Shown: positions 7,816-63,206 of the stretch, piece after piece
How the letters are laid out: each line of letters opens with the position of its first letter
Position numbering within the stretch: position 1 is the first letter of the stretch
Assembly (NCBI GenBank): GCA_050084515.1
Contig: CM114271.1
Span: 12,710,001 to 12,774,000 of the forward strand
Length of the DNA stretch: 64,000 bases
From: Blasia pusilla
Lineage: Eukaryota
Reading direction: 5' to 3'
Program-made: the position numbers and the translations under genes
Notes under the pieces: model-generated
The model's input: the letters and a program-made list of their open reading frames with translations, nothing else
What the model was told of the DNA's origin: nothing
Databases searched by the model: none

Positions 7816-7938
7816 ATGATCTACTGTACCATCAATGTTAGGAAGGTGACATGGCGCATAATTACGCACATGGTCCTTCCATACCATACCATCGCGTCCC
7901 TCCAGCAAGAGAACACCGGATGGAAAAACGCCACGCAC

Positions 7939-11925: not shown

Positions 11926-12233
11926 TTCCTCCACGATACACCACACAATGGGTGTGGTATCCAAGGGTGTCATCATAGCACTCCCTGCTACCTCGGATTC
12001 CTTAAACCCGTCAAGCTCTGGTGCAAACGCCTCGCTCCACGCGGTCTGCACGTGCTCATCTGCCAATCGTCGAAGCTCCTCAGTCGAGCCCCATAACGAC
12101 ACCTCTCCTCCACGGAATCATGCGGCTACCATAACACTTCTCTCCATAGAAATGTCAGGAACGGGAGTATCCTCTGCATGGACATATCCCTCAATCAAAT
12201 CACCAGGCCAAGTGATGGCACTGCTAAATGCTG

Positions 12234-12630: not shown

Positions 12631-13518
12631 CGACTAAAAGCTCTACCTCCGGGACTCACCAACTGGAAGACCTCTCCTTGTTGATCCAGCTACACAACAC
12701 CAGGAGAAGCCATGGCACGCTCTATCGCGGGTCTAGCGGGGATCTCCGCCATCCTAGCAGCCGCAGCCTGCCATGAATATGACGTGGACGGCCTAAGCAT
12801 CCGCTCTAAGGGCAAGTCCATCACCTCCTCTGCAATCGCCTCTGAACGTGATGCAGGAACTCCAACTCCGCGCTCACATAATGAAGCGTCCAACGGAAAA
12901 GCCTCGGCGGGCGTACCCCCCAACGTCATAACATCGGAAGCAGAAAATAAAGGAGTGCGGTACACAACGGTGGCCACCCCCAACAACGTGCTTGACACAT
13001 GGCCCTCTTGAGCATAAAAAATAGGAGTTGTGGCACTCACTTCTCCTATTGCCCTCCGTGCGTGCACACCAACAACATTACCAATTGTCCAAGAACTTTG
13101 ATGCGGACCCATCGATGGAGTCCTCATCGCTTCGGACAACGTGAAAGACTTAAGAAGCTTAGTTTGTTTCTTGACTTCCCCTCGCTGTGGATCCAACTCT
13201 GCAACTGCTCCATGCATCTCAACTTTGGCTACCTCCATCTGGGCAACCAGGCACATCCAACCAGGATTCTCCATATCTCTGGCTGCTCCATATGATGTCG
13301 ATGCCACGGATACGGCATCGGGTAATCTCAATGCCATAACGACAATATGCTCATGTAGCTGATGTATCTGAGCAACCATCCTAGCCTCTTGCCCGGCATC
13401 TCCCTCGATGCATCTAGGTGGTAGGACTCTATCTCCTCTACGGGCAGCTCCACTACCGTGTCTGGCAACCACAGTTCCTCGTCCCCCAACGGGACTACCT
13501 GGTGCACGATTCTCTCTT

Positions 13519-14033
13519 TGTAAAGTAAGATCCAATCTCTCTCTACACCATCTCAGACCATAGCTCTCAAAGGTATGCACTCTCTCTCATGTCAAACCAA
13601 ACCCACTCTCCTAATGAAAGGCTTGTGTTACACTCACAAGGCAAGGGACCATAGCTCCGTTGCCTTATGCCAAGAGGTTCAACAAAGAGAGAGTGAGCTC
13701 TCAAGCTCTCTCTCTTGGAGGTATACTCCCTTCCCTCTCCCAAGCCCTCTCAACAGTAACCTATGCTCGCACGTCACCTCCTTGGCTCTTGAAAAACTAT
13801 AGCGGGTCAAGGGCCACTTCCCAAAGTGGAAAGTCAAGTATCCCCAACATGGAAACTTACTCGAAATAGTAAGTTTCTCTATATGGCTCCAAATGAGCCG
13901 AAACGAAGGGGAAACCTGCTCTCTCAGGTTTCGTGGGGTCTTGACAGGTCATCCTCGACCTCCTGGGTCTTTCCTACACTACTCGTGTAGACGCTCTGCT
14001 AGATCCCACCGATCTATCCTAATTGTCGTGACA
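13519..14033 (-). repeat. LTR segment B (~515 bp), 5' end of the DNMT-gypsy element
   Basis: Aligns along its length with 18683-19198. On the minus strand it begins TGTCAC and ends TTTACA, then runs directly into mid-gag sequence with no PBS. Confidence 0.85.
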
Positions 14034-34826: not shown

Positions 34827-36013
34827 CGCCTACGCCTCTCGCACCTGCGTCCCGGTGGTTCCTCAACTCCTCTCTCTCACGGCCCTCAAATCTATGAGAC
34901 TGACTAGCGGGGGATATCGAACGTGTCCATAACGTATATACAACTTGACTTAAGGAGATCATCCATGTCGCCTAGAGTTTAAGACGTTGACAATTGAAAC
35001 TGAACGAGAGAAGACTACGGAGCAGTCTGAGAAACCACAGCAACTACCACACACACACACAGAAAGACGCTAATACCACAGATGGCTGGCGTAAGATAGA
35101 GGGGATAGGTGTAGAGAGTCAGGCAGCGAGCGGAACGGAGTACCTACGAGAAAGCCTCTCTGTGATAGTAGGGAACCGTGCGACACTGACCAAAGCGCGT
35201 TCGGAGTGCTCGGCCGGAAGAATAATAGGACGAACAGAGCTCAACTTCCACACCGATACCAAAATTAGATCGTTAATACAGCATGGACTCTCATTCTTGC
35301 ACATGGCTATCTTCCTTCCACGTCCCGAACGCCTGTATAGAAACAGCAAATTGCACCACTCCCTAACAAATGTTCCAACAACAACAGGTGAAGGAGTCGG
35401 CGAAGCACTTGATCCAAGGGAAACAACAATAAAATAAGTCAGCAGACAGAGCAGACGCGCGGAGCGCGGTTTGAAGCGCAGCGACTGGATGCCAATTGCG
35501 GGCCAGACACACAAGTGACCGAAAGACCCTGACTCCCGGCGCGTCTCCAGTCAAGTCCGCACCTCCCGAGTCAACCCCGGGAAAGCACGATATTCAGACG
35601 GCGGCATACTCCGATCAAGGAACGCACCTGGAAAATTCGCTCCGACGTTCTGACCGTGTTCGGGGATTCAGAGCGAGGCTCCGAGGGCTTCGGAACGAAT
35701 ATTTGACGGCTGGGGTGAGAGGCCGGTCGAGTGACTCTAGTCGACTGGGGTAACCGGGGGCCTATCCGCTCACCACAGTTGACTAACTCTCGTAAATTTG
35801 CTTTGATCATGTTATTAGCATGATATTAGAAGGTGTGTGCGCCAAATTTCTATGTTGGATTAGTTTGTGAAAAATAGGGATGTAGGCTTCGAAATTTACA
35901 TGATTTTAAATGGCATTTTAGGAGACGGAAGAGAACCCCAAATCACTTTAGACTCACAATATGGCCATAATCATAATATCAAAAAAAATTGGGATATTTG
36001 CTTTTAGAAGACA

Positions 36014-40807: not shown

Positions 40808-42324
40808 TGAGTTGAATTTTAGGCCGGGTGAGCCGTTTTTACGGGGGCTGGTATTCTGGCATGAGAGAGTAAGAGAGGAGAGGAAGAGAGGAGAGTCTTT
40901 CTTCAAAAAAAAAGGTGGAATCCGCCTCCTCTCTTCAAAACTTTTTGATATTTTTGAAGTTTTTGTTTGCTTTCAAACTAATGAAGTTTTTAGAAGAGAG
41001 TACCAAGTGGACCACATTTGGGCCTAAACTGTGCTCCTTTTTCCAGGTTTGGAAAAACAAGTAGACATCAGAACACCACTGAAAACATCCTTCCATCACT
41101 CTCCATATGAGCCCAATTTGAATCACATTGCCTGTCTAAGCCAGCTCTATAATAAGTTAGGTTGATAATTTGATCAGAAGTAGCAATTTCATCTCAATGA
41201 AAGGTTCAAATAAAGACTGACTATAGTGTCAATAGACACCTGTGCCCTTCAAGGTTTAAATTTTCAGGAGATATGGTTGACATTATGGAGTTTTGACTCT
41301 TCATGCAAAAAGCAATAAATATGCCATCCAATCAATACTCATCCATGAGATGGGATTTTCCACAACACAATAAAACAATCATCATTGATGGTAGCCAAAC
41401 TCTTTCATGAAAACATTGGATGATGTTGTCTCATGAATGGGTGCATGAAGTATACGATGGACTGTTGTGCGATTGACAACTTGGTTTCACCATTGTCTCA
41501 GCCACTGCGAAATGTATGCATAAAGAAGACAAACGTGATCGGACTGAGAGGAGTGAAGAGGAATTGATGCACCCATGTCCATTCGCTCTTACTCTTAATA
41601 TCGGAATCCGGCAGGTTGCAACCCTTCCAACCCGTCGGAATCCGACAGGTTGAACCCTCTGCAACCCGGCGGCACCAGCCAATAGTTTGCAACTCTTGCA
41701 ACCCGTCGGAATCTGACAGGTTGCAAGACTGATGTCTCTCGTCTAGGTTATGTTGCAACCCATCGCTCTCTGACTCGTTGCTTGAAAATAGGAAAAATGG
41801 AAATGTGAGGAGACGTCAGATAACCCGTGAGGTTCCGATGGATTGCAAAAGCAGAAAAAGCCTCACGCCAATATCGGGTTGTGATCGAATATAATATCAG
41901 ACCATAAGCGTGAAGAGATTTGGGTGCGTTAAAAAATCCTCTTTATTTAAAACCCTATGCGAATTGGTTATTTATATCTGATTTCCTAAGCAAGAAAAAT
42001 CTAATCTATGATCTCTTCAGCCTCGTCATCGACAAAAATATTCCTAAGTCTTTCCCGTTCCTCTACAATAAACTTCTCAGGGCTAGTCAGCAACTCCATT
42101 GCACGGTTGTAGATTGGAATTGAGAAGGAGGGAGCATCTGAGAGCCTTGTCCCCTTAGGAACCCCGTATTTGTCCCATGTGATCCCAAATGAGTCCCAAC
42201 GCCTGCCTCGATAGTTGATTTTAAAGCTTCTGCAAAGTGAAACCCATTGAAATCAATATTTGGTCCTTCCCCGAGAACCACCACATCTCAACTCCAAAAC
42301 GCTTCAAATCCAAGGCACCAACAC

Positions 42325-45300
42325 TCACTCGTCATCATCCAACAAATCCTCCAGAATCATCGCTGGCCTCGCCCTTCCAATTTTTGGGATAGCTGGTAGT
42401 GAGGATGGCATCACAACCAGTGGCTCCAGTGCAGGTTCCTTTACTTGTGCAAGCAACTCGTAAACGCCAATCATCCTTTCATAGTCTGACTTTTCCTCCC
42501 GGAGAAGTACAAACAAGGTGTTCCTCGCCTCAAGGCAGAGAATGTTTCGTCCACTCTGCCAAGTAGTTCTAACACTTGCCCCAGAAAGATCGACCAAATC
42601 TAGCACCAAATCACTTGGCCTCGAACACAGCTCCATCAAGATGTGCAGGAGAGCGGGTGATTTTTCCCTCCCACCAACCATAGATACCCCTTCCTCGACA
42701 AGGATTCCACGAGTGACATTGACAGGTTGTTCAGAGTGTATCCATCTAAACATGGATCAACAAGATCGTTTACCTCAAAAACCTTGAACATATGCTCTAG
42801 TTTGACAACACAATATACGTAGGAGTATTTGATCTGCAAACAACACGTGTAAAAATAAGCTTAGAATCGATGGGAGGAAGAGGTCTTCCAGGAGCAACCC
42901 GACCGAATCCAACAGGTTGCAAATGAAAGACGTCACTGAGGAAATTTTCTTTTAGGGGTCTCTGAGCATTCAGACGCTTTGTTTCGCAACCGTGGATGCC
43001 CAAATTGCTGCCCATATGCAACCCGTCGGAGTCCGTCGTGTTGCTCTACACCCCAGAACGCAACGAGTGGTTGCTACAACCCGTCCAAGACCGACGGGTT
43101 GCAGGGGTTGCGGCAAGGCCTATTAGGGTGGGTGTTGCAACTCGTCGGAGTCCAACAGGTAGCAGGACCCACTCACTCTGTGGCGTGTGTTTTGCAACTC
43201 GTCGGAGTCTGTCGGGTTGCAGGAAACACTCCCTTTCTGGGTTGGGTTTTGCAACCCATCGAAGTCTAACGGGTTGCAGGACAAACTCCCTTTCTGGGCT
43301 GAGTTTTGCATCCCGTCGGAGTTTGACGGGTTGCAAGAAAGAACTACAAAAATTTTGGGTTTAAGTTATTGAACTTACTAAGCTTTGGTTTGAGGCCGAC
43401 CTTAGTGGGTAGTCATTCTTTACTACCCAAGATTGCACGGTTTGCCACTTCAACGATCGCTTCACACGCTGCAAGTTGAAGAGCTCATCCTCGCTTCCTC
43501 CGGTAAGAACTAGGAAACATCCAGTGTCACTAAGATACGCTTTGGCAAAGGAGAACATCATCGCGATCTGGTCATATATGAATGAATGTTCCAATCCGGG
43601 ACTGTGTCATGTGGATTTTCTGCCCACACTCTAAGGCCCGACGATAGATCACCAATGAGGAGGTCAACTGCAACCTCCTCACGGATCCCATTGACGGTCC
43701 ATGGGGCATGGCCACTTCACACAAGCTTACGTCCCAACAATGTCAACTTCTCCAAGGCAGGCGTGGACTCTTGTGCTGAGAACTTCTCTACTTCTTCCAA
43801 CAATGATGTCTGATGCAGGAGAATGATGATTTTTGCTGCTAAATCCTTGTGCTTCCCCAATGATGAGGGAGTCTAGGCAACATTCTTGTCCTCCCCCCCA
43901 CCCCTCGGAGAAATCGGGTGTCTCCCTCTTTCGCTTTTTGCGTGTGGGATGTCTGCTTGTTGGGATCTCCGTGATATTGAAATCCACTGGATTCGATTTT
44001 GGGGCCTCCTGTATCCGCCCTTCTTGTCTTGATGATCTTGCTTTGGATGGTTTGGGGGCCTTTACCTTGGCTTTCAACCCCGCAGTCGACTTGTCTTTTG
44101 CCGTGACTGTCTTTGACAAAACCTTTGCTGCCTCGTTGCTTGTGCCTCGGCATCTCCTTCGAAGTACTTCTCGATCTTGACCACAACTCGAACTCCTCCG
44201 CCAATTTGAGGCTAGCCTCCTCGCGAACCGGGTGAATTCTCTTTAAGTCGGCTTGAAGGCATTCAATCATGGACTTTCCCAGCAAGCGCAAGGCATCCGA
44301 GAACGACCACTCTCGTAGCCACTGGGAGATGATTGGGTCTGAAACCCCTCGGGGATGGTCTACCAATTTTTTCTCTGCCTCTATTCCGTGTAGATTGATC
44401 TTCATCACTTGGATTCGCCTGAATTCGGAAATCCCTAAAAGGGCAAATCAGTGAACTCGATCCAATGACACCTTTTCTACATTTGGTGCCTGGGGATCCC
44501 TCTTCCCTCTTTTGTTGCCTCTTGATAATGTCCTTCAACTCTTTGTAGAAGTTTGGCACAAGCTCGAGGTTCAGGACAGCGATATATTGCTACATCTTGC
44601 TTACAAGGTAATGGGTGGATGCCGACACCGCAACTTGAATGGACTTGGCTCTCTCAGAAGCCGAAACATTCCCTCTCTACTCAAGCTCCAATGTCGCGCT
44701 TCTTTTCACCGCCTGGATTTTTGAAAAGCCTCTTCCAAACAATCTGACAAAAACTGACGGTTTGCATCCGGGTCCATCGGGGCTGAGTTGCAACTCGTCG
44801 GAATCTGTCGGGTTGCACCTCGAGTCTAGTAAATTCAAAAATTCAACCCGTCAGAAACCAATAGGTTGCAAAGCCATCCAAAACAAGTTTGGGTTTGCAT
44901 GTATGTGCAACCCGTCAGAGACCGACGGGTTGCACATACACCCAAAGAAAGACTCATCACGTAAAGATCATGCAACCCATCGGAGTCCGACGGGTTGCAT
45001 GAAAGCCCACTCAAACCACGCCCTCTCCTGACTGAGCAACCCGTCAGACTCCGACGGGTTGCAATGCTAGTCTTATTGGGATTGCCGCAATTGAGATTGT
45101 GCAACCCGTCAGTCTCCAACAAGTTTCTAGGAAATACAATAGAGAGTCAAGAGAGTTCCACATATTGCAAATACGAGCATCAAGTTCTTCCTCTCGCAAT
45201 CCACCGGAGCTATTGTTAACGATGTTAGCAATTAAAACCCGTTCATTTTTTGGAAGAAAAGTTCAAGGATACTTACGTGTTCATGGAGTGCATGGCCATT

Positions 45301-46473
45301 TCCACCATGACCATGTGATTCGGGTAGGGATGGAGGACCACTGCCTTTACCCAAAAGTGAGCCTCAAGGGAGTTTGGACGCTCTGCTGCAAACTACGACC
45401 AAGCCTTGAATCGGTGGATGTCATCCCACATGAGAAGTACATAAAGTGCATCCATTTGTATTGGGTTCCTGCCACTGCCTTTCGGAACTCCACGTCCCTT
45501 AGCCTCCAAAAAGCATTGAGACTCTCCAGATCTTCCTCCGTTACCAACGCCTGGGTTCCATGCTCATCATACGATTGAACATAAAGTGGTGGGAAGCTAT
45601 CAACATATGAAGTTTTCACCACGGACTGCTTCAACTTGTCAATATCTTCCTCCGATTGGATTTCTCTAACGTATTCCATCATTCAGAGTCGGCATAGAGG
45701 AATCCTCGGGCCATTTGGGTCAACCACCAGTGCCATCTGCTTCACCACTTGCTCGAATGTCACACAGTCAATTCACATTTCCTAACGACGAGCACTAATG
45801 CAGTGCGGAGAGAACTGAAGAACAATGCTTACCTGCTCAAAAATTGGGTCCATGTCAAGTCCACCAAGCTACTCTTGAGCCTCATCTGGCAAGTCTTCTG
45901 GAAACTCTTCAATTTCAAAGAGATCGAATTCTTCAACTGGCTTTTGAGATGTCAAAGACTCTTCTCCTTCTCCTTCTCCATCCGAAATCTTCATGATCTC
46001 GACACTTGGGGTTTTAACAACTTCCTCATTGGTCTCTGGAAGCTCGTCGGTGTTGGTCTCCTGCATTAGACCACTCGACCTCATGGATGACACATCCTCT
46101 ATTTCCACACTCTCGGTGGGTCGTTCGGAGGGTTCTTCTTCTACTGCGACCGCCTTTTCCTCCCTGGCTTTTGCAAGTTCGGCTTTCCGAAAGGCGGTGT
46201 CTTGCTTCTTCTTCAACTTTATCTCCGACTCTATGCGTTTCTTCTCGGCCTTCTCCGCATTTGCAAGCAATTTTTCTTCCCGCTTCTCCTCTTGCTTCGC
46301 GAACTTCTCCAAATCAAGTTTTGCCAACATTTCCTGCTTCCTCATTTGGTTTCACACTCGCACTGCTCAATTTCCTCTCGCCGTACATCTACATGTGTCT
46401 GTCCGTCGCGTAACAGAAGACGGAGTACTGACAGACTTAGGCGAGTAGCTCCCGACCTTGCTGGCTTGGCCAT
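42325..46473 (-). pseudogene. Multi-exon TE-associated gene: K/E-rich coiled coil, ParB/Srx-like domain, helical region, degenerate N4/N6 (beta-class) DNA methyltransferase fold
   Basis: PRIPLCRL.MMEYVR...MWDDIHRFKAW (ParB DGxHR-like, ~45400-45715); VDLLIGDLSSG (~43637-43668) and AKAYLSDTG; EKSPALLHILMELCSRPSDLVLDLVDLSGASVRTTWQSGRNILCLE (~42530-42670), which follows the K-P..L...S.PGD.VLDPF.GSG.T......GR..IG.E template. Confidence 0.62.
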
Positions 46474-46828
46474 TTTTTTTAGTTATCCTGAAATAAGCGG
46501 AAAATTGAACACTACGCGAGGGGTTTTCACCTAAATTGTCGTTTCCTCTGAAAAGAATCGATTCAACTCAAACCGTCGTCACCAAATATTTTAGCCCCCA
46601 AATAAAGAGTCAACAACCAACCGTCAAAATGTCTAAGTAACTGGAAAGCCAATTTTCATAGTTGTCTGAAGAGGGGACCTGAAAGAAGCGCAGAAAAGTG
46701 TAGAATGGATAGTGAAAAGCCTCAAAACTGGTCCTCATATACTTTCAGAGCTGTTGGACTTGACCATTGGTACGATGGTCAAACGTTGGTGTCCAATGGA
46801 TAACTGGTTGTACAACGATGGACAGTTA

Positions 46829-48437
46829 CAATGCAAGTTCTGCGTGGTCCGCTTGCAACCCGTCGTAGTCCAACGGGTTGTTGGCATAGATCCCGCTCAG
46901 TTCTTGCAACACGTCGGACCCCGACGGGTTGCAAGGTGCCCATCCATCTTGGGTCCTATGCAACCCGTCGGACTCCAACGGGTTGCACGTGGACTGTAAT
47001 GTACTAGAATTATAAGAATTGATCTTTTTAAGGTGATTTATGGAGTTTGATCCCCAGGAGGATCACAATTATCTAAAAAGGAAGTTAAAGTCTATCATTT
47101 ACGTGAGTTTGATAGTTATGTTGATACAAAATAGATTCAAATATTCATCAACCTATTCTCCTTCTTACAAGTACCAAGATGTTCCTTTCCTCTATACTCT
47201 CCCGTGGAATTGAATTCATGCTGAGGCAGATCTTCACTCAACACCATAGAACCTCACAAAGATCTCAACAAGAAGATGGCTTCTCCTACTTTCGGAACTC
47301 AATCCGTCTTGGCATGCTACTCTCTGTCGAACATATGTCTTACAACTTGCCGTTGATTATTCTAATGGTGAAAGTGCTCTCCCGATCTATTCTTCACTCT
47401 GCAGACCGAATAAGATGATTCATGAATACATGCCGCACATCAGAATGGAGAAAGTCAGTTCTTTACTATTCCATCAAGAATGAGAAAGATTCAAAGTGTA
47501 TACAAGCATGAGAGGGTACTACTCCCTTGCTCAGACCATTCCTATAACATAAGGACTTCGTGAGCGAATGATGTTGATAGCTACTTTCATGCTTCTTAAA
47601 TATCCTTCGAGACAGTAATAGTCCTAAAGATATGAAGCGCTTCTTCTAAATCTAGTACCTATTGGGATCTTGTAACTACTTTGATCTACGTTTCTCTTAT
47701 CTTTTCCTAGGATCCTTATGAATCTTCTGGTTGTAACTGTCCTAACTTCTTATCCGGTCCAAAAAGTCACATCTCTTCCTAGCCGAACTACTCTAACGGT
47801 ATATTGCTTGAAATAGCAACCAATCTTAGTTTCGCTGCGAAGTTAGAACCTCTTCTTCTTCCCTTGAGGACGAAGCTCTTCCTCTTTGTCTGAGGATGAA
47901 GCGCTACATTCTTCGCCCTTGTTCCAAGTGCTTCGTTCTTCATTCTTCCATGAAGCATTGATGCTTTGTCTTAGTGCTTTGTTGAAGAGCGAAGTAATTC
48001 TTCCTCTTCTTCATCGTGCTTTGTTCAAGAGCGAAGCACTTATTAAACTTCGTTATCTTTGCCAAGCTTCGTTGTTGGTCTTTAGACTTTGTTACCTCAT
48101 TTTCCTCTCCTCCAAGGCAAGTCCTTGATTTTCCATCCCTCTCCCTTATCCTAGGAGCTTCATAGTCAATTCCATTACTCTTCATTCTTCAATCCGTTAA
48201 AATAATATCCAAGATAACTTTGTATATACAAACTTTACTTCAAATAGTCCTTAACCTTGAATCAAAATGTATAAATCTCCAAAATTACAAAATCTTGGGT
48301 ATCACATGGACTCCCTTGAGCCTGTATCTCATGCAACCCGTCTGACTCCGACGGCTTGCACAAGGACCATTCAACTTGATTCATGCAACCCGTTAGACTC
48401 CGATGGGTTGCACGCAGACCACGCGGAACATGCACCG
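46829..48437. mobile_element. MITE-like TIR element (about 290 bp once the nested LTR is removed), flanked by TA
   Basis: Left TA|CAATGCAAGTTCTGCGTGGTCCGCTTGCAACCC; right end reverse-complemented TA|CGGTGCATGTTCCGCGTGGTCTGCGTGCAACCC. The interior consists of five palindrome copies. Confidence 0.7.
46995..48306. mobile_element. Solo LTR (1312 bp) nested in the MITE
   Basis: TGTAAT...ATCACA termini with exact 5-bp TSD TGGAC (46990-46994 and 48307-48311); contains no palindrome copies. Confidence 0.8.
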
Positions 48438-48869
48438 TAATCTAGGCACTGAACCTATGCAATAATTCTGCAATCCGTCAGACTCCAATGGGTTGTATCA
48501 TCCCACCCAAACTCGATTCAACTCGACAAAATGCTTAGGGCTCGTTGCTTCAACATCCCTGCCGACGATTTCCAACCCGTCGCACTCTGACGGGTTGATC
48601 TTTCCCTTAAGTCGATATTCCAACCTGTCCGGCTCCCCATATTCAAGGAAGTTTGGCAAATCCTCGGCCACTATTGAGTAAACATCATGTCCAAATATTC
48701 CTTTCTGGAAGGTCTTGTCAACTAACTACCAACTGCATATTAGACATATTCTGTCCGAATTTAAACGGACACTGTTCACTATAAATTCAACATTCTTATT
48801 CTTATTCTTATTCTCATTCTCATTCTCATTCTCATTCTCATTCTCATTCTTATTCTATCTTGGCAATCA

Positions 48870-51800
48870 TTCATGGTCTGACCCAAATGGAGAATTATGT
48901 GAAACTCATATAGCAGCCATCTAGCGGGCCTTCCCAGAGATAATTTGAGCCAAACCTAGTGACATTCATATAATTGTCAAAGAACATTTCCTCTCACTCT
49001 GATTTCTTCTCCATATTGGAACCATTTTTGTATCCAAGGATGTCAAGGTTGATGGGCACGATGATGTTATTGGTGAAATAGTCCAACCGGAGATTGCAGG
49101 CTCCAAAGTTTGGAACCTCTTTCCCTACTCCAATGGAAAATTTAGAGTTTATGGCTTACATCTCATGACCACTTCCACTCATGAAGAGGGTTTAGTGCTC
49201 CATGCTCCACATTGGGCACGGATGCTTCAATCAATCGAGCATCGACTCCAATTTCACAAGCACGGAATGTCGCGGTTGAAGCTGTAGACATCTCGGATGT
49301 CTTCGATCTCACATGATCTTTTGGAAACATGTATGACCCAACATCTACTTACTCTTTCTTGCTTCGAGTTTCAGGGAATTCTTTGCTTTCTTCTCTTCCC
49401 TTGAAACTGTTCAAGCACATTATCGTGGATGAGCTGCCCACAACGTATGATGGAGATTGCATTTTTGAGTTGCCTCCACCTATCGATCCGGATCAGAAGA
49501 AAGATGGAGGCCGCCTGAAGGGTATGGACCAAAAATTGGACTATCATCGATGGTGCAGATTGAGTGCATCGACGAGCGCTTCAATCCTAGGTGGTCCTTG
49601 GATTGTGTCTCGTCGCCAATGCGTTGGAGCATTGGAATGCAAAAGTCCAAGATGCCCCTTCCTCGAGAGGAACGAAGTTGTGAATACTTCCCAATTCCAT
49701 CCCAAAAATGCAAAAACTCCTTACAATGTGGGTACGACCATAGTGCCATACTGCTAGCTGCAGCTGGCCATCGATGTCCGCATTGTCAAGCTTCCACTTT
49801 TTGTGTTAGAGCTTGTCTGGCTTATATTTTTTTCATAGTGCACGACTAAAATTCTACTTCCGAGTATACAAGGTTGGAAATTCATGTTGGGTCTCACACT
49901 CATCCTATCACGGGTGCAATTTAGAGACACATGAAGGAGGATATGGTAAAGAAAGTGGCCGAGATGTATCAAAGCCATGAGTGATCAAATTGACAAAAAC
50001 ATCACAAATTTGTGAACAACTATTGGCTATCCCTGGTAAAGGGGAGATCATGAGAGTTGAGGAGAAACAATTGTGGGAAAATCTTGCATTCTTGGTTGAT
50101 CCCGAAAGCTTCAGGAACTTACTGCATCAAATACAAATACTTGATGGAAAGACCACGGAAATGGATGCCATTTCCAAGATCAAGGCCAACTCACGGTTTC
50201 CATTCATCTAAAGATGGCAGTTCATGGGCCAAGGAGGCGAGGGATCTAGAGCTTATGTCTTCAAAATGTCTACTATAGGCCCGTCTAGCGGCTTGGATCT
50301 TATTGATAGAATGAGGGAGGGAGAGGATGTATTTGGGAGCTGGGTTAGCTTTGATATTTCCTACAGGGTGTTAAATGCATGGTTGACCATGGATGCACAT
50401 GTTTACAACCATGTGGAGAAGGGTCTCAAAATCATTTGTCTGTGAGGTGAAAGCGAAAGATGTTGGCAGCTTGAAGATGTGTTGGTTCCTCTTACTAAAG
50501 GTGGTGAAGGAAAACAAAAGACCTCCTCCTGAAATATATGGCTTCATGGTGGAAAATGCCCAACCGGGATGGATTTTGATTAGGGAAGTATTTTGGTGGG
50601 GGGGGGGAGGGGGGGCCAATTCAACCGGAAAGGGAAAGATTGGATGCTTTCCATGGGCAACAGTCCGTGACTTGCTACACAAAATCCTACATCAAGGAGA
50701 CTAAGTGAACAGAGCATATAGCTCTACTTCAACGTTGCAAGGATAGCAAAACCTTGAAACAAGCTATGGAGTGCCAAGAAGAGCTTCATGTGTGGTGGAG
50801 AAAGCATGTGATTGAGGGGAAATACAAAGAGTTGTGTTCGTGGCTGAGTTGGTGGACCGTCCGTATGAGGCAATGCAAAAACTTTATGCGCCAAGTGAGT
50901 TTTCTCCATTTTTGCAAAGTATGTGGTTGCAATTGTACAGGTTGCAAATGAGGTAGGTAAAGCAACCCGTAGAAATCGACAGGTTGCAATTATTTTCAAA
51001 AAATATTTCATAAGAAACTCGGTGGAATCCAACGGGTTGCGGATGTTTTTAATGAAAAAAAATCATTTTGCAACCTGTCAGAATCCCACGGATTGCAAGT
51101 TGAAAGATACTTTCATGCGAAAAAAAATCAACATGCAATCGGTCAGAATCCGACGGGTTGCAAGTTACTTTCTTGTGAAGAAAGTTCATCTTTCAACTCA
51201 TTGAATTCCGACGGGTTGCATGATGAATATTTTTCGCATGAAACTATCTTTCAACTTGTCAAAATCCGACGGGTTGCAAGATGAGCTTTTTTTGCTTGAA
51301 AGTATCTTTCAACCCGTCAGAATCCGGCGGGTTGCAAATTACTTTCTTCCGAAGAAATTTCATCATGCAGCCCGTAGAAATCTGACGGGTTGAAAGATAG
51401 TTTCTTGTGAAAAATGTTTATCATACAACCCGTCAGAAGTCGACGGGTTGCAAGCGTTCAAGCATTCAATTGATATGTTTTTGTATGTAGGGACTTAACA
51501 TTCACGAAAATTCCCTCTATCCCAACACAAGTGGAGCCGAGAATGTCCATTCCTCTTGAAGGTCATCACAAACATTTCAAAAAATATCTCTTCTTGAGGC
51601 ATGCCAACAAGACGAGGCAAGAGCGATGCTACAATCTACAACCTCCCACATCTTCCTTACAAAGGGCGTAACCAAGGGAACATGCCCTTCGATTTATGAG
51701 CTCTATGTTAGAGCCGCTACTAGATTTGGGATAAGACATTGTATGTGGAAGCTTTCAATCAGTGCGTAGCCGGAACTTCTCTTGAGAAATACATCCACAT

Positions 51801-52011: not shown

Positions 52012-52069
52012 GTAAGAAGAATTTGGGTTATATGAAAGCTCATTATGTAATACATTGGCAAAACACAGC

Positions 52070-52495
52070 CGCTTATTGACTTTGTCCCCATTGTGGCAGG
52101 TTGTTAAGCAGATGGTACTGATGGAGGGCCAAAAGTCCCCAAGAATTCCACTATGTCGACTGCAGAAAATGGAGTACATCTGCAAAATTCAGTCGGAGGA
52201 AGACATTGCAAAGCTGAAACAGTCGGCAGCGACGGCATCCTACGTTGACAGCTTCCCTCCGTTCTATGTTCAGCCTTATGATGAACATGGAACCCAAGCT
52301 CAGGTGACGGAAAAGGACTTGGAGACGTTTGATATATTTTGGAGGATGAGAGACCAGGAGTTCAGAAGAGCAATTGAAGGAACCCAATTTAGCTGGATGC
52401 GGAACCTCTACTTCTTCATCTGGGATAGGAACCACAAGTACATGGCGTGGACGCAGTTTGCAGAGGAGCGCCCAAAATCATTGGAGGCGCATTTT
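52070..52495 (+). pseudogene. Second copy of the ParB-like exon
   Basis: PRIPLCRLQKMEYICKIQSEEDIAKLKQS...SYVDSFPPFYVQPYDEHGTQA...FFIWDRNHKYMAW; clearly homologous to 45347-45750 (-). Confidence 0.75.
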
Positions 52496-55400
52496 CTTCA
52501 TACTTACATGAGAAGAAAATATCAATGTAACTACCACAAACCTCCAAGTAAAGTTGGATCCCGAGGCTTCTATCATGACGAACATCCATTCTCTTAAATA
52601 TATCCTGCAAACTAGCTTGCACTCTCTTTGAAGCAATTCGTCGAGGCCCAGCCCAATTTTGCGTGTCAGTCCTATTCACATCATCCCACTTTTAAGCCAT
52701 GCTGATGAATTTTGTAGTGGTTATAGAAATTTGTCACATATGACAAAGATGCGTGTTGATCTCCAAAGACACAAGTAGCTGAGCATCTATCCAATGGATT
52801 AATTGCTTTTTTCCCATTGTGAGGTGCATCCTGGTCTCCAAAGCCATACAAATCACCATTAGGAAGAATAGAGACAGAATACTGCCATCCTTCCCACCCC
52901 ACACTATACCTAGGTGTAGTAGAGTTAACACCCCTAAAATCCTCCATCATTAGTTTTCTACGACGAGCATCCTCGTCACTGGCATGTCCTAATAAAGGCC
53001 CGACATCACCTGAACAATACTCATCCCACACTACTTTCAGTTGCACCTAATGTTGTCTCACCCACTCTGCAATAAACTTGTTACACGTGGCAATAATACA
53101 GATGGCCAATTTAGGCATAGACTCAGGAAGAGGATTTACAATGATAAATATAGCATACATGCCTTTACTGTAATCCTAGAAAGTACTTACAATCTTATGG
53201 TAGCCCTCATCACCCTCCCCGACCAATACTTCCATTCCATATGAACATTGGTGTGCCTCTTTCGGCCCACAAAACCCAATCAGGATATCATACTTGGCCT
53301 CCCATCTGTCAGACATGACTCTGTAATATTAGGTTATATTCACAAGCATAAAATTATTCAGTGGCTTATAATTTGTTGTATTGAATCTCAAAACACTCAC
53401 CTAGGCCTCTCCTTAATCCTTGTTTCATCCTTTGCAAATATTACATGGACATCTCCTTCAATTCCAAGAGTTTGCTTTGATGCAGATAAAATTCTGCCAA
53501 CCTCCATGAATATCTCTTTGCTTAATCCAACTCTGAAAGGTGGTAACTTGGCTCTGTCTCGCTTCAATTTTTTTAGACTTGGACCATCTAAGTTCTACTG
53601 AAAGCAGTGGGCCACTTTCCTGCCACCTTATTGTAGCATTGCTTCGGCTATGGCTCTAGTTCTTTTACCGTACCTAAAACCCTTGGCAGCCCTAGTTAGA
53701 TTTCTAGCAACATCTGTCATGAAATCCCATAACCCTTCTTTGCCACCAAATGCTCCAGTCCTATGCCCATTCATTATATTCCTTAGGAAGAATCTGAGAT
53801 CCTCCCTATCTGTAGCTACTCCTAATAATTCCTCTAATTTCCTCCGCCTAGTACTCAAGGCAGGTACTTTGGCAGCATACTCAGATAGGAGCCATTGTTG
53901 CTTTCTGAATTTGGAAGTCACATTTGCAACGTGCTTTCTGTGCCCTGTCTTGGTGAAACAATCCAACCGTATCCCCCCACAGGTATCTCTGGCTCCTCTT
54001 GGCACTACAACTTATGCTTCTCTGTGCACCTGACCACGGAAATCATCCAATCGCCTTATTGACTCACATTCACTACACGTTAGGTTCATAAACCCGCCAC
54101 CATTGTAAGACAACCTTTCACATTGCTTGTGTCTAAAACAACCTTGAATGGTCACTAGAGACTCTAGAGTAGGATTTTACACATGTGCACAACAGGTTAA
54201 CTTGCAATCCCATAAGGCCAATCCCTCTTGATCATCAAGAACAGCGTTGACATCCATTCGATCTCCTCTCCACTTCACCATTTCATCCCACAATCCCCAA
54301 CAAAGCAAACATAGTCTTAGATCTATTGTTGGATCTGACCCACCTTTCCCAGATTGGCTGCCAACGTTGGACTTATCTCTTGTGAAGAACTTCAGGATTG
54401 ATCCCTATGATGGGCGTTGATCCCTGGTATTTGCTTTCCTTGATCTGCCTCTCTTCCCAGACCTCAATGAAATCTCCACAGAAGCCTCCTTGACCTCAGA
54501 GGCATCCAAGTGATCCGGACTAACCATGTGTTGCCTCAAATTATGATCCAAATTCATTTTTTATGGGCACATGTCTATATGCAACTTTCCACACACCCTA
54601 CACCTCACCTTAAACATGTATGACATATTGGCACTATGAGGATCCGTGGGAGATGGTGTCACAAAGAACACCTCCCTATCATCCCCAACATCATCATTCA
54701 GCTGGAAGACAATCTCTAGTCCTCTAGAAATGGCCTCACCTGATGATGGAACAGATGTCAGAGGACATCTAGAGTGTTTGGAGTGTAGAGTGAAATTTAG
54801 GTCTGTGAACAACGTCACTAGGTTGCAACAATGATGTAGGCAATTTTCTTCTCTTAGAAAAGCTATCCTCATGTTTTGGGTTAACTAGATGTTTTTTCCT
54901 AAAATTTCTAAAGCAATTTGCAATAGCTTTCATATTTTGGGAATTTTCTGCATTCCCATAGTTCACTCTACACTCCAAACACTCTAGATGTCCTCTGACA
55001 TCTGTTCCATCATCCCATGTCCTCACCCTCCAATTGTGATCCTTGTATCCATTCTTCTCAACCCACTTCCCTAATCTCATGAACTCATCATTCCAGCATT
55101 TTGCAGCAGGATCTGCCATCAACACTGACTCAAACGAGGCCCGGACGAACCCTTGGTTTGTGATATCAATTGAACCCACCGGATGTGCCTCAATTTCACT
55201 ATGGTTCTCAAACACTAGAGCTAAACCTATTACAATCTTGGCTATAATAGACAAGGTGGCTGCACAAGACTGGGAGGACACTTGGATTGTCCTCCCACAA
55301 GGGCCTATAGGTAATTTTTGAATGACACCTACTATACCATCCAATTCCATCAGCAGAATGACCTTCTCTGCATTCCGGTGCGTTCTACCAGGGAGCCCAA

Positions 55401-55563
55401 AGTCCCAGAAATCAAAATCAAATTCCACAATTGCAGAATATTTCAAGCGCAGGTCTGCTAGTGTATGCCCATCTAAGTAACCTAAAACACAAATAGGCTC
55501 ATCATTCTCTCCATCACCCCTCTTTTCAACCAATCTGATACTAGCTCTACTACAAGTCAACAT
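52496..55563 (-). pseudogene. P-element/THAP9-like DDE transposase remnant with N-terminal zinc-finger-like repeats
   Basis: VIFAKDETRIK (~53413-53445), LIGFCG, VNPL...PKL.....TCNKF, GHASDEDARRRKLM, DQDAPHNGKKAINPL (DxxH motif), QNWAGPRR. Upstream CxxC..H..H units (CLEC..KKHLVNPKH; CRVC..RQHMVSPDH). 3' end missing. Confidence 0.6.
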
Positions 55564-56826
55564 TGGAAACTATGGGGATATACACATGAACATGTTACAC
55601 AAACCACAACAGAGAATACAACACCACAAATCACATCCAAAGCAATTCTAGAATTAAATGCTACATTGCGTTCAATCTCACTTATGAGGGTAGTCGTGCT
55701 CATCCATTTTCTCATCACGTGGCAATGGTGGAAATGGCAATGCATGCGGTGAATACGCAAGTTTCCTCATCCTTATGTTTGATTGCTTCAACCCGTCGCA
55801 GTCCGAGGGGTTGCATAATTGGAAAGCTTGAAGATGGGCAGGAATGATTTGAATCTCTTGCCCCCATCCTCTTTGAGGTTAAGGTCATAGTCAAGCAAAC
55901 CGTCGTAGTCCGACGGGTTGCTTGGTGGCCAAGCACACCACATTAATCCGGGATACGGAAACCAATCGAACATCGACGAGTTGAAAAATGACTGCATGAT
56001 TTATTTGTTCTGCAATCCGCCGCACTCTGACGAGTTGCACAATGAGGGGTAAGAAATCATTGGACGCCTTAAAGTAACTCATTTGAGTCTGAAGAGTTGT
56101 TGGAATGTCCCCTATTTTTTGGATACTTTTGGCCAAAAGAAACCCATCGGAATCGCATTTCCCCGCTCGGTCAAGTGGTCAGAGTCCAACAGCTTACTCT
56201 TAGGCTTCCAATTCCATATTTATAGGGCCATTCCGCAACCCGTCGGCCTCCAACGGATTGATATGGGCAGTTTTTATCCGGAAACCTGTCTCGGAATGCA
56301 TTCTACAACCCGTCGGACTCCGACGGGTTGGAACCAAGGAATAGGAGTCATTCTCTTGTTGCACGAGAGAGTCAGGAACAGAGAGTGCAACCTTTCGGGA
56401 TCTGATGGGTTGCAACACTCATGTGAGATTTCAAGGATGCCCAATCCATTGGAGTTCAACGGGTTGCAACAATCGCTTTCACTTGCAGTCTCTTTGACAA
56501 AAAATGTATTATCTGCAACCCTCGGACTCCAACGGGTTGCAACACTTATCTATGTGTAACATTTTGGACCCCGATGGGTTGATAGAATTGCGACCCGTCG
56601 GACTCTCACGGGCTGCAAAAAATATATTTTTCATCGAAGAGACTCTAAGTCAAAGCGATTATCGCAACCCGTCGGACTCCGACAGATTGGGCATCCTTGA
56701 AATCTCCCGAGAGTGTTGCAACCCATCGGAGTCGGACGGGTTGCACTCTCTATTCATGACTCTCTGGTGCAACTAGACGGAAACCGATAGGTTGTAGTAT
56801 TCTTACCTTGTGTTTGGATTTGCAAG

Positions 56827-58190
56827 ATTGTATTTGAGGGGAACGTCATCCACCACTGGATCCAGAATTGCGACAGGGTCAAGAAGGTGGTTACGACACA
56901 CGCGGCAGAGAACAAGGGATTCCTGGGTGACAATCTCGTCGATGAGATGCTAGCAAAAGGAGCTCAAGTAAAGAATAAGACATGGGCAAATACCTTCATT
57001 TCCCAAGATGCAGCCGTCACAATCCTTATTGGTCCAAGATCCAGGCCGCCAAGAAGAGTGCTATGTTGGAACAGGAGGGAAGGGAGAACGTGTCCGCATT
57101 GGAACGGGAAAAAAATATTCAGGTTGCCGTATCTGTATAGACAAAGTACAATGAAAGCAAGATGCAGCGTCACATTGCAATTCTCAACCTCGAACTTGGC
57201 TCAGATTTTTACAAGGAGCTAAAGGCGATAATCAAGCGCCAACGGAAGAGAGACAAAAGACCCACAGGGTTGGATCGGAGAGAAAGTGTCTCTCGACCGC
57301 GTGCACACGTTTACACTGTCTGGCATATGCAAGTTTAGGCGAATCCGACTGATGAAAATCAATCTCGAGGGCACTTAGGCATAGAAGGAGGCTACACACC
57401 ACCCTCCGGGAGTTTCAGTTCTAGTGATCTCCCATTGGATATGAGAATGGTCATTATGGGACGCATTGCGCCTTCTCGGGGAATCCATGATCGTGGGTCT
57501 ACAAGTGGAGCTGAAGAAGATTGAGCCAGTTCCAGAGGAAGAAAACCTAGAGGCTATAGAAGATTTTGAATTCTACCTTGATGACATCAGAGATAAGCAG
57601 ACGAAAAACCCAGGATTTCGGATGATGTTCAAGAATCACATCCTCCTTCAGGCATATTTGGATGAGGAAATAGACGTGGAAAAAATGGGACTTTGCAAAG
57701 AAGATGCGAGCTCTTCAAGAGCAGGCGGCCGAGTCATCTGGACAAAGTGATGCCTTGCGGATGGTGTACAGATAGATCATCAATTGTGTGAATGCAAGTA
57801 CCTGGCCCAAATTTCTGGCAACGTGCAAATTGTGGGCTTCTCCGCCTGATGGAGAGGGATTCTCCATGTACGACATGGAGATGGGAGAGGGCATGTCCAA
57901 CTAGGAGGTAATAAATTGTCCAATCTGGTTGGACTTCAACAACCCAAAGGATATTACAGACAAAAATCAACGGGTGGTCTATGATGTAGTGGTCGTTGGT
58001 AGGGACGACATTCCAAACTTCGAGGCTTTACGAGGTTCACCTACGGAGGAGCAAGCCCTCAAGACAACGGAGTTGGTGGCAAAGTTCGTCACCGCCAAAG
58101 ACAAATCCACAGCGGGTTTGAAAGCCAAAGCAAGGGGATCGAGGAATTCCGAGGCCGAGTCTTCAAGAAAAGAGGCTGAATCTTCAACTT
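56827..58190 (+). pseudogene. Continuation (middle region) of the second ParB-like gene copy
   Basis: Homologous to 44050-44745 (-): FYKELK.IIKRQ, WSLWDALRLLGESMI vs WSFSDALRLLGKSMI, VTAKDKSTAGLKAK in both. Confidence 0.75.
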
Positions 58191-59569: not shown

Positions 59570-60121
59570 TCACTTTTCAGAATTTAAGTAAATAAGGTCG
59601 GTCAACTCGAATTTCGGCGCTTCTTCAGAGATGTCCACCATCTCTATACTTGCTGTCTTCATGACCTCATCGTCGGTCACTTGAACTTCGGCCATTTCCT
59701 CAATCGAATTTAGATTCATGGTATCCCCAGATCTCATCGGAGACATTTCTTGCATCTCAACACGGCCTGTTGGACAGGCACGGCTTTCTTCAATGGCGAT
59801 TGCTTTTTCTCTTCAAGCTTTCGCCAATTCTTCTCTTCTGATGGAGGCAGCAAGACGCTTCTTCTCGCGTTTCTCATCCGCAACTCTTTTCTTCAAGGCC
59901 TTTGATGCCTCATCCTTGGCGTTTTGCTTTGCAAGCTCCTCTTGAGCAAGTTTTTCCAGAACCTCATGTTTGTGCATATCTGCTTCCCTTTCATGCTCCT
60001 CTATTTCTTGTTGCCTTATTGCATTCGCCGAGCGAGGACCAGGAGATGGAGACGCAGGAGTCGTGATGGACTTGGGAGTGAAGCTCCCTACCTTCATTGC
60101 TTGTGTTTTCTTCCTCGTCAT
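59570..60121 (-). pseudogene. N-terminal K/E-rich exon of a third copy of the ParB-like gene (truncated)
   Basis: ELAKA*REKAIAIEE...PVEMQEMSPMRSG is homologous to ELAKAREEKAVAVEEE...VEIEDVSSMRSSG at 45869-46345. Confidence 0.65.
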
Positions 60122-61139
60122 GGTGCATGTTGGGTTAGTTCTTCCTCCTCGACAGTGTTATCTGCTCCTGTGCACAACAGATCCCTCGAAGCTTTGATGG
60201 AGTGCCTAAAACTAACTCTCCAAGCATTGTGCGGTGAAGCATCGTCACCTTCAAGCGGAGGGGCTTACGGAAATGGAACCCTCAAAGCATCGCGTGCGGG
60301 ATCGTCGTTACCTTCCAACAAAGGGGTCAATGTAACCAACTTGGCCAGCGGAGAAGGTAACCACAACTCCTAGGAGGAAGACCACCTGAGCGAAAAAGGG
60401 AAATGAGCGAAATCTCAACCTTTTATACTTTTTGAGCCGTTGAGCTGACCATTGGGTTGTTGGAACCGTTGTACCGATGGCGACGTTGCCCATTATGGAA
60501 CTTTGCACGTGGGAAATGTGCAACCCGTCGGAGACCAATGGGTTGCACACTTCCCTCGTCACATGTGCAACCCGTCGGAGACCAATGGTTTGCACCTTTT
60601 CCTCATCTTGGGGTAACAAGGCGAGGTACCCGGGAAAACCAAGGCATAGTCTTCGAATAACTCGTCTGTCCCTCACAGTTTGCACGGTTCACTACACAAG
60701 GGAAATCGACGCAAGATCCACCCGCAACTCGGTTACCTCCAAAAGGGAAAGTGAGGTGAGGTACCTTTTCAACCCGTCGCAGTCCTACGGGTTGCCGTAG
60801 GAAATCCATGCGAGGTCCCATGGATCCCGACTCCAACGAAATCACACAGGTTAGACAAGCAAGGGTACTGACTGACAACCGCCTTCAACCCCATGGAATC
60901 GGAAGGGTTGCAAGTTGCACTCGGACTCTAACAGAAGATGGTACTCCATGGCTTTGCAATCCATGTGTCCGTTTCCCAGAATTTGCAACCTGTCGGACTT
61001 TGACAAGTTACAACATGATTGAATCCATTGCGTCAGACAATCTTACCTACCAAACAACATCTTGTCAATAGGTACTACTAAACATTCACATTCTCATTCC
61101 CATTATTATTCTTATTCTCATTCTCCACCAGGTGGAATC

Positions 61140-63206
61140 ATTTGGGAATGGATAATTATGTAAAACTCACTTGTGGCAGTCATCTAGCGGCCCTTCCTCA
61201 ACCAAAAATAATTTGATCGCAAGCTCCAGAGTCTTATATACCAGTGGAGGAAAATTTTCTCTCAGTGCGATTTCTTCTCCAAATTGGAACAATCTATGTT
61301 TCCAAGGATGTTAGGGTGGACAGTACGGAGGACGTTGTGGGTGAGACAGTCCAACTAGTGATAACAGACTGTAAAGTATGAAATCTCCTACCTCTAAAAA
61401 ATGGACAATACAAAGTTTATGGCTTGCCTCTTAATTCCTCTGTTTCCCAAGTACACGGTCCAAAAATTTCTAATGCACCGAGCTCTACGTTTGCCACTCC
61501 CAGCTCTATAGATCCAGCATCAACTCCAACTTCACATGTTTGTAACAATGTTATACTTCCTAAAGACATTCCGGATGTCGATAACCTCAATGGATCTATC
61601 GGAAACCAACCGTGCCCTATCTCTGCCTACTCATTCCTCTTGCGAATATCAGGCAATAGTTTGCTATCGACTCTGCCTTTAAAAATTTTAAGCACATTCT
61701 TGTCGACGAGCTGCCATCCATGTACGATGGTCAATGCATTTTTGAGTTGCCTCCACTTGCTGGTCCTGCTCAAAAGAAAGATGGAGGATGCTTGAAGGGT
61801 ATGGACAGAAGGTTTGATTGTCATTGATGGTGCAGGCTTCAACGGACTAGTGCTTCAATTCCACATGGTCCTTGGATTGTTTTCGCCGCCAATGCGTTGG
61901 AGCCCTGGAGTGTAGAAGTCGAGGCTGCCCGTATCTAGAGCACAAGGGGTGAGTCAATACGTCACAATTCCCCCCAAAGAATGCAAAAACTCCATATGAG
62001 GTTGGTGCGACCATACCGCCGGGAGGCCATCAATGTCCTCATTGTCAGGTATCCTCTTTCAGCGTTGGAGTGTGTCATGCATACGTATTTTTCATTGTGT
62101 ACGACTTTAGCTCTACGTCCGAGTAGACCAGGCTGGCAGTTCATGTTGGCTCCCATATTCATCCTATTATCAGTGCAATTCAGAGACACATCAAGGAGGA
62201 TGTGGCAAAGAAAGTGGCCGAGGTACACAGAAACTCTCCGAGATCAAAGCCCGGAGTGATCAAGTTAACAATAACATTACAAATTTGTGAACAATTGCTT
62301 GGAATCCCTGGGCAGGGCGAGATCACGGCTGTTGAGGAGAAACAACTATGGGGAAATCTTGTTGGTCCTAAATACTTACGGAACTTTCTGCGTCAAATAC
62401 GAGTACTTGATGGAAAGACGGCCAAAATGACACCATTTCCATAATCAAGGCCAACTCCAGATTTCCATTTATTTAGAGATGGCAATTCATGGGCCAAGGA
62501 GGTGAAGGATCGAGGGCTTATGTCTTCAAAATATCAACTACATGGCCGTCCAATGGCCTTGATCTATAAGATCGAGGCCACTCGACGAGGCCAAGATCGA
62601 ATGAGGGAAGGGGAAGATCTCTACGGCAGATGAGTAAGCTTTGATATTTGCTACAGAGTGCTGAATGGATGGTTGATCATGGGTGCTCACATTTACAACC
62701 ATGTGGAGAAGGGACTCAAAACTATATTTGTCTGTGAGGTAAAAGCAGAAGACGTTGGTAGTTTGAAGATGTGTTGGTTACTCTTATTGGAGGTGGTGAA
62801 GGAAAACAAAAGGCCACTTGTGGAAATTTATGGATTCATGGCGGACAATTCACAACCTAGATGGATTGCTATCAAGGAAGGGTTCTGGGGTGGAGAGGTT
62901 AAACTAGAGAGGGAAAGGTCGGATGCTTTCCATTGGCAACAGTCTATGACCCGATACACCAAATCTTCCATCAAGGAGAATAAGAGAACAAAGCATGTCA
63001 CTCTACTCCATTGCTCTCAGGACAACAAAACCTTGAAAAAGGCCATGGAGTGCCAAGAAGAACTTTATGGAAGGTGGAGGAAGCATGCAATTGAGGGGAA
63101 GTACAAAGAGTTGTGCTCTTGGCTCAGTGGGTGGACTGTACGAATGAGACATGTTGAGAATTTTTTGAAAAGCTCATGTTTCGAGCTAATGTTGAAAATT
63201 GTTTGA
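61140..63206 (+). pseudogene. GCM-like/MULE transposase, copy 2 (runs towards the window end)
   Basis: Colinear with 48870-50894: FDICYR, GFMADNSQ, ERSDAFHWQQS, ELCSWLSGWTVRMR; followed by a palindrome-rich intron-like segment. Confidence 0.72.

Follow-up and report, generated by a model that had tools for sequence, protein, structure and literature searches.

The DNA examined here is a 64,000-nucleotide (nt) stretch of the Blasia pusilla genome (GenBank assembly GCA_050084515.1, contig CM114271.1, positions 12,710,001 to 12,774,000 of the forward strand), which we refer to as the window and number from its first letter. Its minus strand carries, from ~46486 to 42325, a multi-exon gene whose last exon resembles part of a DNA methyltransferase. 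An earlier account made from the letters alone, called here the sequence-only reading, had described this gene as a transposon-borne fusion of a ParB-like exon and a methyltransferase fold. All of the strings quoted in that account could be located: WDDIHRFKAW, VDLLIGDLSSG and the EKS..LVLD..SGAS..GRNILCLE block in this gene, which we term copy 1 (Table 1), and WDRNHKYMAW in a second copy (52421-52450, plus strand). The gene also contains introns, as had been claimed, with GTAAG-type donors ending the coding similarity in both copies. One such GTAAG donor follows DPIFE(Q/R) in copy 1 and copy 2 alike, and copy 1 has two GTAAGT donors, one at the end of exon 2 and one before the last intron.

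Copy 1 (46486-42325) is a pseudogene. Its frame holds six stop codons, frameshifts break it in at least two places, and its start codon has been lost, with ATA at 46486-46484 where a third copy of the gene has Met. The ATG at 46473, proposed earlier as the start codon, is not in frame and lies 13 nt downstream of the position of that Met. Further along the basic linker that separates the middle exons from the methyltransferase-like region, a cluster of Lys and Arg residues may represent a nuclear localization signal, which it resembles in sequence. The reading frame switches between exons 3 and 4 in both copies (44426-44462 on the minus strand in copy 1; 57285-57321 in copy 2). A 37-nt GT..AG stretch bridges this switch exactly in copy 1, and the corresponding stretch of copy 2 reads GT..TG; if an intron, it would be unusually short for a plant. 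Searches of the PDB with the middle exon (44181-44447, minus strand; 57310-57576, plus strand, in copy 2) returned mainly chains of ubiquitin E2 variant 1 (UEV1), which made up four of the five matches for the single sequence and all four for the two-copy profile. We treat a UEV1-like resemblance of this exon as a lead only: the E-values are ~1, the two-copy profile does no better and the aligned block (KIN..G...VD.PR..S...W) is not significant.

The gene forms part of a multi-copy repeat family. Using exon pieces as tblastn queries, we found two further diverged copies in the window, making three in total. Four matched pieces of copy 2 share 39-68% identity with copy 1, the upper value belonging to exon 2 (68% over 82 amino acids [aa]), which is more conserved than any other part of the gene. 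Copy 2 is without the methyltransferase part and is interrupted by ~4.5 kb of other sequence in its intron (52600-57100). This insertion contains minus-strand open reading frames (ORFs), for example one of 266 aa at 54769-55569 that includes a Cys/His-rich stretch, for which Pfam gave no match. Additional copies were sought at the read level, in short contigs from three DNA runs of one sample (X1-X3) that were placed at 80% likeness. The three runs yielded 130, 196 and 333 related contigs, which cover the whole gene and are mostly 80-95% alike. Together with the three copies in the window, these contigs bear out the assignment of the gene to a repeat family of the transposon type.

The contigs also help to separate damage that is specific to copy 1 from changes in the family. 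Where copy 1 has the TGA stop at 43719-17, related contigs read CAA, and the stop is therefore private to copy 1. The two underlying changes, 43718 C>T and 43719 A>G, occur together in one contig in X2 and in five in X3; X1 has 43719 A>G only, in one contig. Comparison of copy 1 with copy 2 gave a ratio of nonsynonymous to synonymous substitution rates (dN/dS) of 0.16-0.21 for exon 2 (82 codons) and of 0.16 for the middle exon (86 codons); dS is saturated. From this low dN/dS (0.16-0.21) it follows that the gene was protein-coding while the family diversified, and purifying selection acted on its older lineages. Summed contig depth along the gene is uneven, reaching 75-765 in the bins 42464-42602, 44827-45104 and 45244-45382 versus ~0-60 elsewhere. 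Two contig joints, 43222>45266 and 43336>45485, jump ~2 kb. The joints and the depth peaks suggest high-copy deletion derivatives that arise between palindrome arrays, which are described below.

For the last exon, remote homology with that half of a permuted N6-adenine/N4-cytosine DNA methyltransferase which binds S-adenosylmethionine (AdoMet) is, at the level of sequence, well supported. In a phmmer search of 177,635 PDB sequences, the best match was M.RsrI (E 0.0055), on its C-terminal HPTQKP..FAGSG..GRN block (chain residues 204-273); the remaining seven of the nine matches had E-values of ~0.4 and fell off the motif. An HMMER scan of 1.84 billion representatives returned a single relative, P0001 (E 8.7e-4), a sequence of 107 aa from the Logan assemblies. 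When the last exon and P0001 were combined into a two-sequence profile, methyltransferases accounted for five of the 11 PDB matches, including the top four (M.RsrI 1e-4, DpnA 0.03, M.MboIIA 0.79). In PHROGs, DNA methyltransferases were all three of the families matched by the last exon and all three of those matched by P0001. The sole Pfam match of P0001 is to PF01555, at profile positions 168-208 of 221 (13.6 bits, E 0.063; threshold 26.7 bits).

As a phage reference we used 40 aligned ORFs of 400-480 aa from IMG/VR contigs, found by a DPPY-coding pattern; all three that were checked carry PF02195 (ParB_N) and PF01555 (N6_N4_Mtase). A profile of the last exon aligned by hhalign to these ParB-methylase fusions at the HPTMKP..LDPFGGSGST..GR..E block (E 5.6e-5, probability 66%). 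In an HMMER-based control with 2000 shuffles per piece, none of the 2000 shuffles of the last exon matched the observed hidden Markov model (HMM) score. The AdoMet-binding part comes last, as the sequence-only reading had it, which is the permuted order of the phage fusions. Those fusions are ~420 aa long, lack introns and have DPPY and GSG intact; the plant gene has about double their length, is split by introns and has no detectable ParB_N. By sequence, the closest solved structure is M.RsrI (PDB 1eg2), residues 202-273 of whose 319 align with residues 9-79 of the last exon; nothing upstream of this C-terminal block aligns, and the E-value quoted above for the profile is only modest. Apart from P0001, no relative emerged: phages and plasmids searched by tblastn with the last exon gave nothing at E up to 10, word-based protein searches came back empty, and pattern and tblastn scans of prokaryotic genomes and metagenomes gave no confirmed relative.

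The AdoMet-binding motifs themselves are unusual. The last exon and P0001 share G(G/S)R(E/Q)(K/R)S in place of HPTMKP and DL(V/S)D in place of DPFG. The H, T, K and P of HPTMKP and the F of DPF are invariant in all 40 phage enzymes, and the same invariant residues are replaced in both the last exon and P0001, so the divergence is family-wide and not private to copy 1. The F-x-G-x-G AdoMet loop, described in the earlier account as degenerate, is indeed so in copy 1, where it reads V-D-L-S-G; P0001 reads S-D-G-C-G, retaining the glycines and losing the aromatic residue.

No part of the protein is better conserved than exon 2, which is therefore a real domain. The sequence-only reading had named it ParB-like, an assignment that failed every profile, sequence and shuffle test. 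Neither copy, nor a profile of the exon, matched ParB_N (PF02195) in Pfam, NCBIfam, PHROGs or the PDB. Aligned by hhalign to the 40 phage fusions, the exon reached a probability of 1.8% and was placed on the wrong region. When the two copies were scored against an HMM of the phage ParB half, 391 and 152 of 2000 shuffles equaled or beat them, and an ESM Atlas search was uninformative (best score 0.78). A W-D-x-x-H-(R/K) string is present in both copies; at the position of the ParB motif they read D-D-I-H-R and D-R-N-H-K versus G-H-G-R in the phage family, and neither has a Gly-x-His-Arg type motif after the strand. The ancestral WDGNHR proposed earlier was thus a guess, as an ancestor with glycine is possible but unobserved. 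The pairing by hhalign of SFPPFYV in exon 2 with phage TDPPYNV was likewise dismissed as chance, as it comes from the same alignment of 1.8% probability and lies ~400 residues upstream of the rest of the domain.

These results bear on whether the gene descends from a true ParB-N and methyltransferase fusion whose direct source was a phage, a plasmid or an integrative element. Such an origin would fit the domain order of the phage proteins, in which ParB_N comes first and the methylase second, as well as the W-D-x-x-H-(R/K) string kept in both copies; moreover, proteins that join a ParB-like domain to a methyltransferase have been described from algal transposons (PMC12477816). It is quite unlikely, however, given that exon 2 has no ParB match in Pfam, NCBIfam or the PDB, is aligned to the wrong region and scores no better than many of its shuffles, that the distance from its PP(F/L)YVQ strand to the motif (~50 residues) is longer than in the phage family, and that the last exon found nothing in phages and plasmids.

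The locus also has a set of palindrome arrays. Allowing two mismatches or fewer, a 12-nt motif occurs as 102 half-sites versus 2.2 expected, and 101 of them fall within 41.6-63.9 kb. They form 31 inverted pairs, 30 of which have a 3-nt spacer and so make up a 27-nt palindrome. The half-sites are gathered in ten clusters (41608-63946), some arranged as tandem units of 57-58 nt, and the clusters occupy introns of the gene, the stretch separating the two genes and what are presumably the element's edges. The association of the arrays with the element is tight. The 27-nt palindrome was not found in viral and prokaryotic collections.

On the opposite strand, ~2.3 kb upstream of the gene, lies a broken gene, the putative transposase remnant (48815-50951). 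The divergent layout of gene and transposase is seen twice, in copy 1 and in the third copy, whose transposase remnant (61083-63206) is better preserved. For an ORF within the latter (62634-63206), 24 of the 30 nearest clusters in the ESM Atlas are MULE (PF10551), with a best score of 0.93, a result that we take as a lead only. The element is probably a multi-copy DNA transposon of the Mutator-like type.

Mutator-like elements often capture host fragments, and copy 1 could in principle be such a fragment, picked up by an element of the Pack-MULE type and of no use to the transposon. Frequent capture is what speaks for this origin. A multi-exon structure with conserved donors, a dN/dS of ~0.2 between copies ~30% apart in DNA, a placement next to the transposase that two diverged copies have in common and the lack of any host relative in protein searches all argue against it, and we consider it extremely unlikely.

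Table 1 Features of the gene, its copies and the surrounding element in the window. Coordinates are window positions; a period marks features without strand.
Feature	Coordinates	Strand	Remarks
Palindrome array downstream of the gene	41608..41846	.	Possible element edge
Last exon with stop codon, AdoMet-binding half	42325..42748	-	Motif region (EKS..LVLD..SGAS..GRNILCLE) 42666-42529
Last intron	42749..43378	-	Contains palindrome array 42894-43334
Palindrome array in last intron	42894-43334	.	57-nt tandem unit at 43126-43335
Middle of methyltransferase-like region, other frame	43379..43606	-	Frameshift near 43590; GTAAGT donor at 43378
Start of methyltransferase-like region	43558..43872	-	VDLLIGDLSSG at 43668-43636; TGA stop 43719-17
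Conserved basic linker, third frame	44018..44125	-	58% identity to copy 2 (58070-58177) over 36 aa
Exons 3 and 4, middle region	44181..44589	-	Frame switch shared with copy 2; dN/dS 0.16 in second frame
Palindrome array in intron between exons 2 and 3	44754..45112	.	Same intron in copy 2 has array 55788-56744
Exon 2 (so-called ParB-like)	45276..45757 (5' limit approximate)	-	WDDIHRFKAW at 45428-45399; stops 45685-83, 45395-93; frameshift near 45437; GTAAGT donor at 45275
Exon 1, charged Lys/Glu-rich N-terminus	45833..46486	-	42% identity to third copy over 125 aa; three stops (46369-67, 46354-52, 45871-69); GTAAGC donor at 45832
Spacer between the two divergent genes	46855..48598	.	Palindrome arrays 46855-46986 and 48333-48598
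Broken remnant of a putative Mutator-like transposase, copy 1	48815..50951	+	72% nucleotide identity to 61083-63151
Palindrome array after transposase remnant	50962..51451	.	58-nt tandem unit 51147-51454; possible other element edge
Copy 2, diverged, truncated	52016..58177	+	Exon 2 at 52169-52500, middle exons 57168-57618, basic linker 58070-58177
Third copy	59570..63206	mixed	Exon 1 at 60157-59570 (-), array 60520-60996, transposase remnant 61083-63206 (+)
Palindrome array, third copy	60520-60996	.	Between exon 1 and transposase remnant

In our preferred reading, the locus is probably a dead copy of an accessory gene, the second gene of a transposon, one whose protein entered the nucleus and acted on its own element and whose C-terminus derives from a methyltransferase. 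The family protein would be ~900 residues long, with a charged N-terminus, the exon 2 domain, the basic linker and the C-terminal domain, and in working copies it would be nuclear by way of the Lys/Arg cluster in the linker. It would act on the DNA of its own element, for which the 27-nt palindrome arrays in introns and spacers are candidate docking sites. As for its activity, it may be a very divergent methyltransferase writing N6-methyladenine (6mA) or N4-methylcytosine (4mC), or, more likely, a non-catalytic module for DNA binding or anti-silencing, the latter being favored by the family-wide loss of otherwise invariant residues.

Several results weigh against this interpretation. On the side of the element, Pfam found no MULE domain in the transposase remnants, and the transposase is identified solely through the language-model look-alike search of the ESM Atlas. 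No pair of terminal inverted repeats flanking 41.4-51.5 kb was found, the only inverted repeats being the internal palindrome arrays; copy 1 is old, and its decay may hide them. That the protein binds the palindromes is purely our inference. On the side of the protein, Pfam gave no match for any piece of the copy 1 gene, even at E up to 10. With one database relative only, the conservation of the odd motif variants is that of two sequences. AlphaFold models of the last exon and of exon 2 reached confidence (pLDDT) values of 41.5 and 46.9; the helix, strand, strand order of the first fits a methyltransferase and the second is mostly helical, at confidences too low for a fold search or for other use. 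The segment with VDLLIGDLSSG (43872-43558) showed no significant similarity to the phage family, with 730 of 2000 shuffles reaching its score.

This last result concerns the proposal that VDLLIGDLSSG occupies the catalytic position. The string is present, in the only window copy having this region, and its DLSS (43650-43639) would be a degenerate DPPY, as the sequence-only reading had it; the catalytic assignment lacks statistical support. Because the segment is indistinguishable from shuffled sequence, DLSS is placed at the catalytic site by position only. A forced global alignment instead pairs TVPDWN with phage TDPPYN; neither DLSS nor TVPDWN is canonical, and no canonical (D/N/S)PP(Y/F/W) motif is present in copy 1. 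For the following segment (43606-43379), hhalign gave an alignment (E 0.03, probability 1.7%) to phage family columns 238-288, which lie after the DPPY block and before the HPTMKP block. Its score was matched by 22 of 2000 shuffles, which is weak but colinear support. We treat the C-terminal ~270 residues as a single putative methyltransferase-derived domain.

A skeptic might go further and hold that the methyltransferase likeness is due to chance and that the gene is an unrelated transposon ORF. All single E-values are modest, the best being the 5.6e-5 of the phage alignment, Pfam is silent on the last exon and the N-terminal half is not significant. Independent libraries and two independent sequences nevertheless converge on one family, at the same motif block and on nothing else, and no shuffle in 2000 did as well. 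Chance is accordingly a very unlikely explanation.

A different question is whether intact copies encode an active 6mA/4mC writer that modifies its own element, the motif degeneration being damage specific to copy 1. Copy 1 is heavily mutated (six stops, frameshifts), and both DLSS and the damaged glycine loop may thus be confined to it. P0001 keeps the G-x-G loop, both sequences retain the acidic residue after the next strand, and the gene was under purifying selection, all of which would suit an enzyme; algal transposon proteins with the domain are predicted as writers (PMC12477816). The shared replacement of H, T, K and P of HPTMKP and F of DPF in the last exon and P0001 counts against an active enzyme, as does the fact that in no other copy could the catalytic motif be seen. 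We regard an active writer as unlikely.

The accessory-gene interpretation gains context from a few published systems. The Ectocarpus element Sola1-1_Ec32 encodes an accessory protein of 1104 aa with ParB-like DNA-binding and N4C/N6A methyltransferase domains, for which its authors propose that it binds and modifies its own element (PMC12477816). Going by its description, this is a large protein that, like that of the Blasia family, is encoded in a DNA transposon on the strand opposite the transposase and has a prokaryote-type amino-methyltransferase toward the C-terminus. It differs in its brown algal host, in its membership of the Sola1 superfamily and in having domains visible to standard annotation, whereas the plant gene falls below the Pfam threshold and its ParB domain is unconfirmed. 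Among Plavaka elements of red algae, PAG2 combines a PF01555 methylase with SET and PAG3 a ParB-like domain with a 2-oxoglutarate (2OG) oxygenase, and Chondrus Mutator elements carry them as well; these elements have tandem inverted-repeat arrays that are proposed as binding sites, and most of their copies are degenerate (bioRxiv 10.1101/2025.02.11.637652). The shared features are a PF01555-type domain on giant DNA transposons, including Mutator-type ones, internal inverted-repeat arrays and mostly degenerate copies. The differences are that different proteins carry the methylase and the ParB-like domain, partnered there by SET and oxygenase domains, and that the hosts are red algae as opposed to a green plant. 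Our Pfam scans of the gene pieces and window ORFs revealed no SET or oxygenase domain.

Host-encoded enzymes offer a second comparison. Bdelloid N4CMT (PMC8885841) and Marchantia MpDN4MT1a/b (bioRxiv 10.1101/2021.02.12.428880) are PF01555 enzymes of the host with demonstrated 4mC activity. Like the Blasia gene, they are bacterial-type permuted amino-methyltransferases with introns in eukaryotic nuclear genomes. Unlike it, they belong to the host, occur in one or few copies and have kept their catalytic motifs (TSPPY in Marchantia), whereas copy 1 is a pseudogene of a transposon family with degenerate motifs. Iyer et al. report few N6A methyltransferases in land plants (PMC4738411). The known plant case of transposon proteins acting on their own DNA is that of the VANDAL anti-silencing factors (cited in bioRxiv 10.1101/2025.02.11.637652).

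Taken with these systems, the gene is a probable, degenerate green-plant member of the algal-type class of accessory genes that combine amino-methyltransferase domains with inverted-repeat arrays. It lies inside what is probably a DNA transposon, in divergent orientation beside the putative transposase, and has a PF01555-type domain. A bolder proposal is that young intact copies encode a working amino-methyltransferase that docks on the palindrome arrays and writes 6mA/4mC, which would constitute a self-marking anti-silencing system related to the algal accessory genes; we consider this improbable and offer it as speculation. A literature search in which subscription journals were mostly outside the scope and supplements were not covered gave no report of a gene of this kind in a transposon of land plants.

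Elsewhere in the window we made a survey with Pfam, which was applied to 133 of the 152 window ORFs of at least 90 aa; the other 19 lie in 42328-46531, where only the minus-strand gene pieces were scanned. A Ty3-type retrotransposon remnant at 7549-13586 (minus strand) retains reverse transcriptase, RNase H and integrase, together with a PHD finger ORF at 7666-7938. The clearest host gene in the window is an intact, intronless U-box and armadillo-repeat (PUB-type) gene of 658 aa at 32856-34829 (minus strand). An ORF of 473 aa at 2405-3823 (plus strand) lies in a GC-rich stretch (57% GC versus ~43% around it), and its sole domain match is a sub-threshold one to Sigma-70 region 3 (E 8e-4). Ankyrin exons are also present, and scans with Rfam and for tRNAs gave no matches in the 64-kb window.

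To our knowledge, transposons rarely encode proteins that bind the element's own DNA or mark it chemically. Algal accessory genes with ParB-like and methyltransferase domains were first reported in 2025, and a green-plant member would widen the class. As a dead copy, the gene described here has its value as a pointer to its family. In that family one could ask, in a plant, whether transposons use 6mA/4mC, or a dead methyltransferase fold, against silencing by the host.

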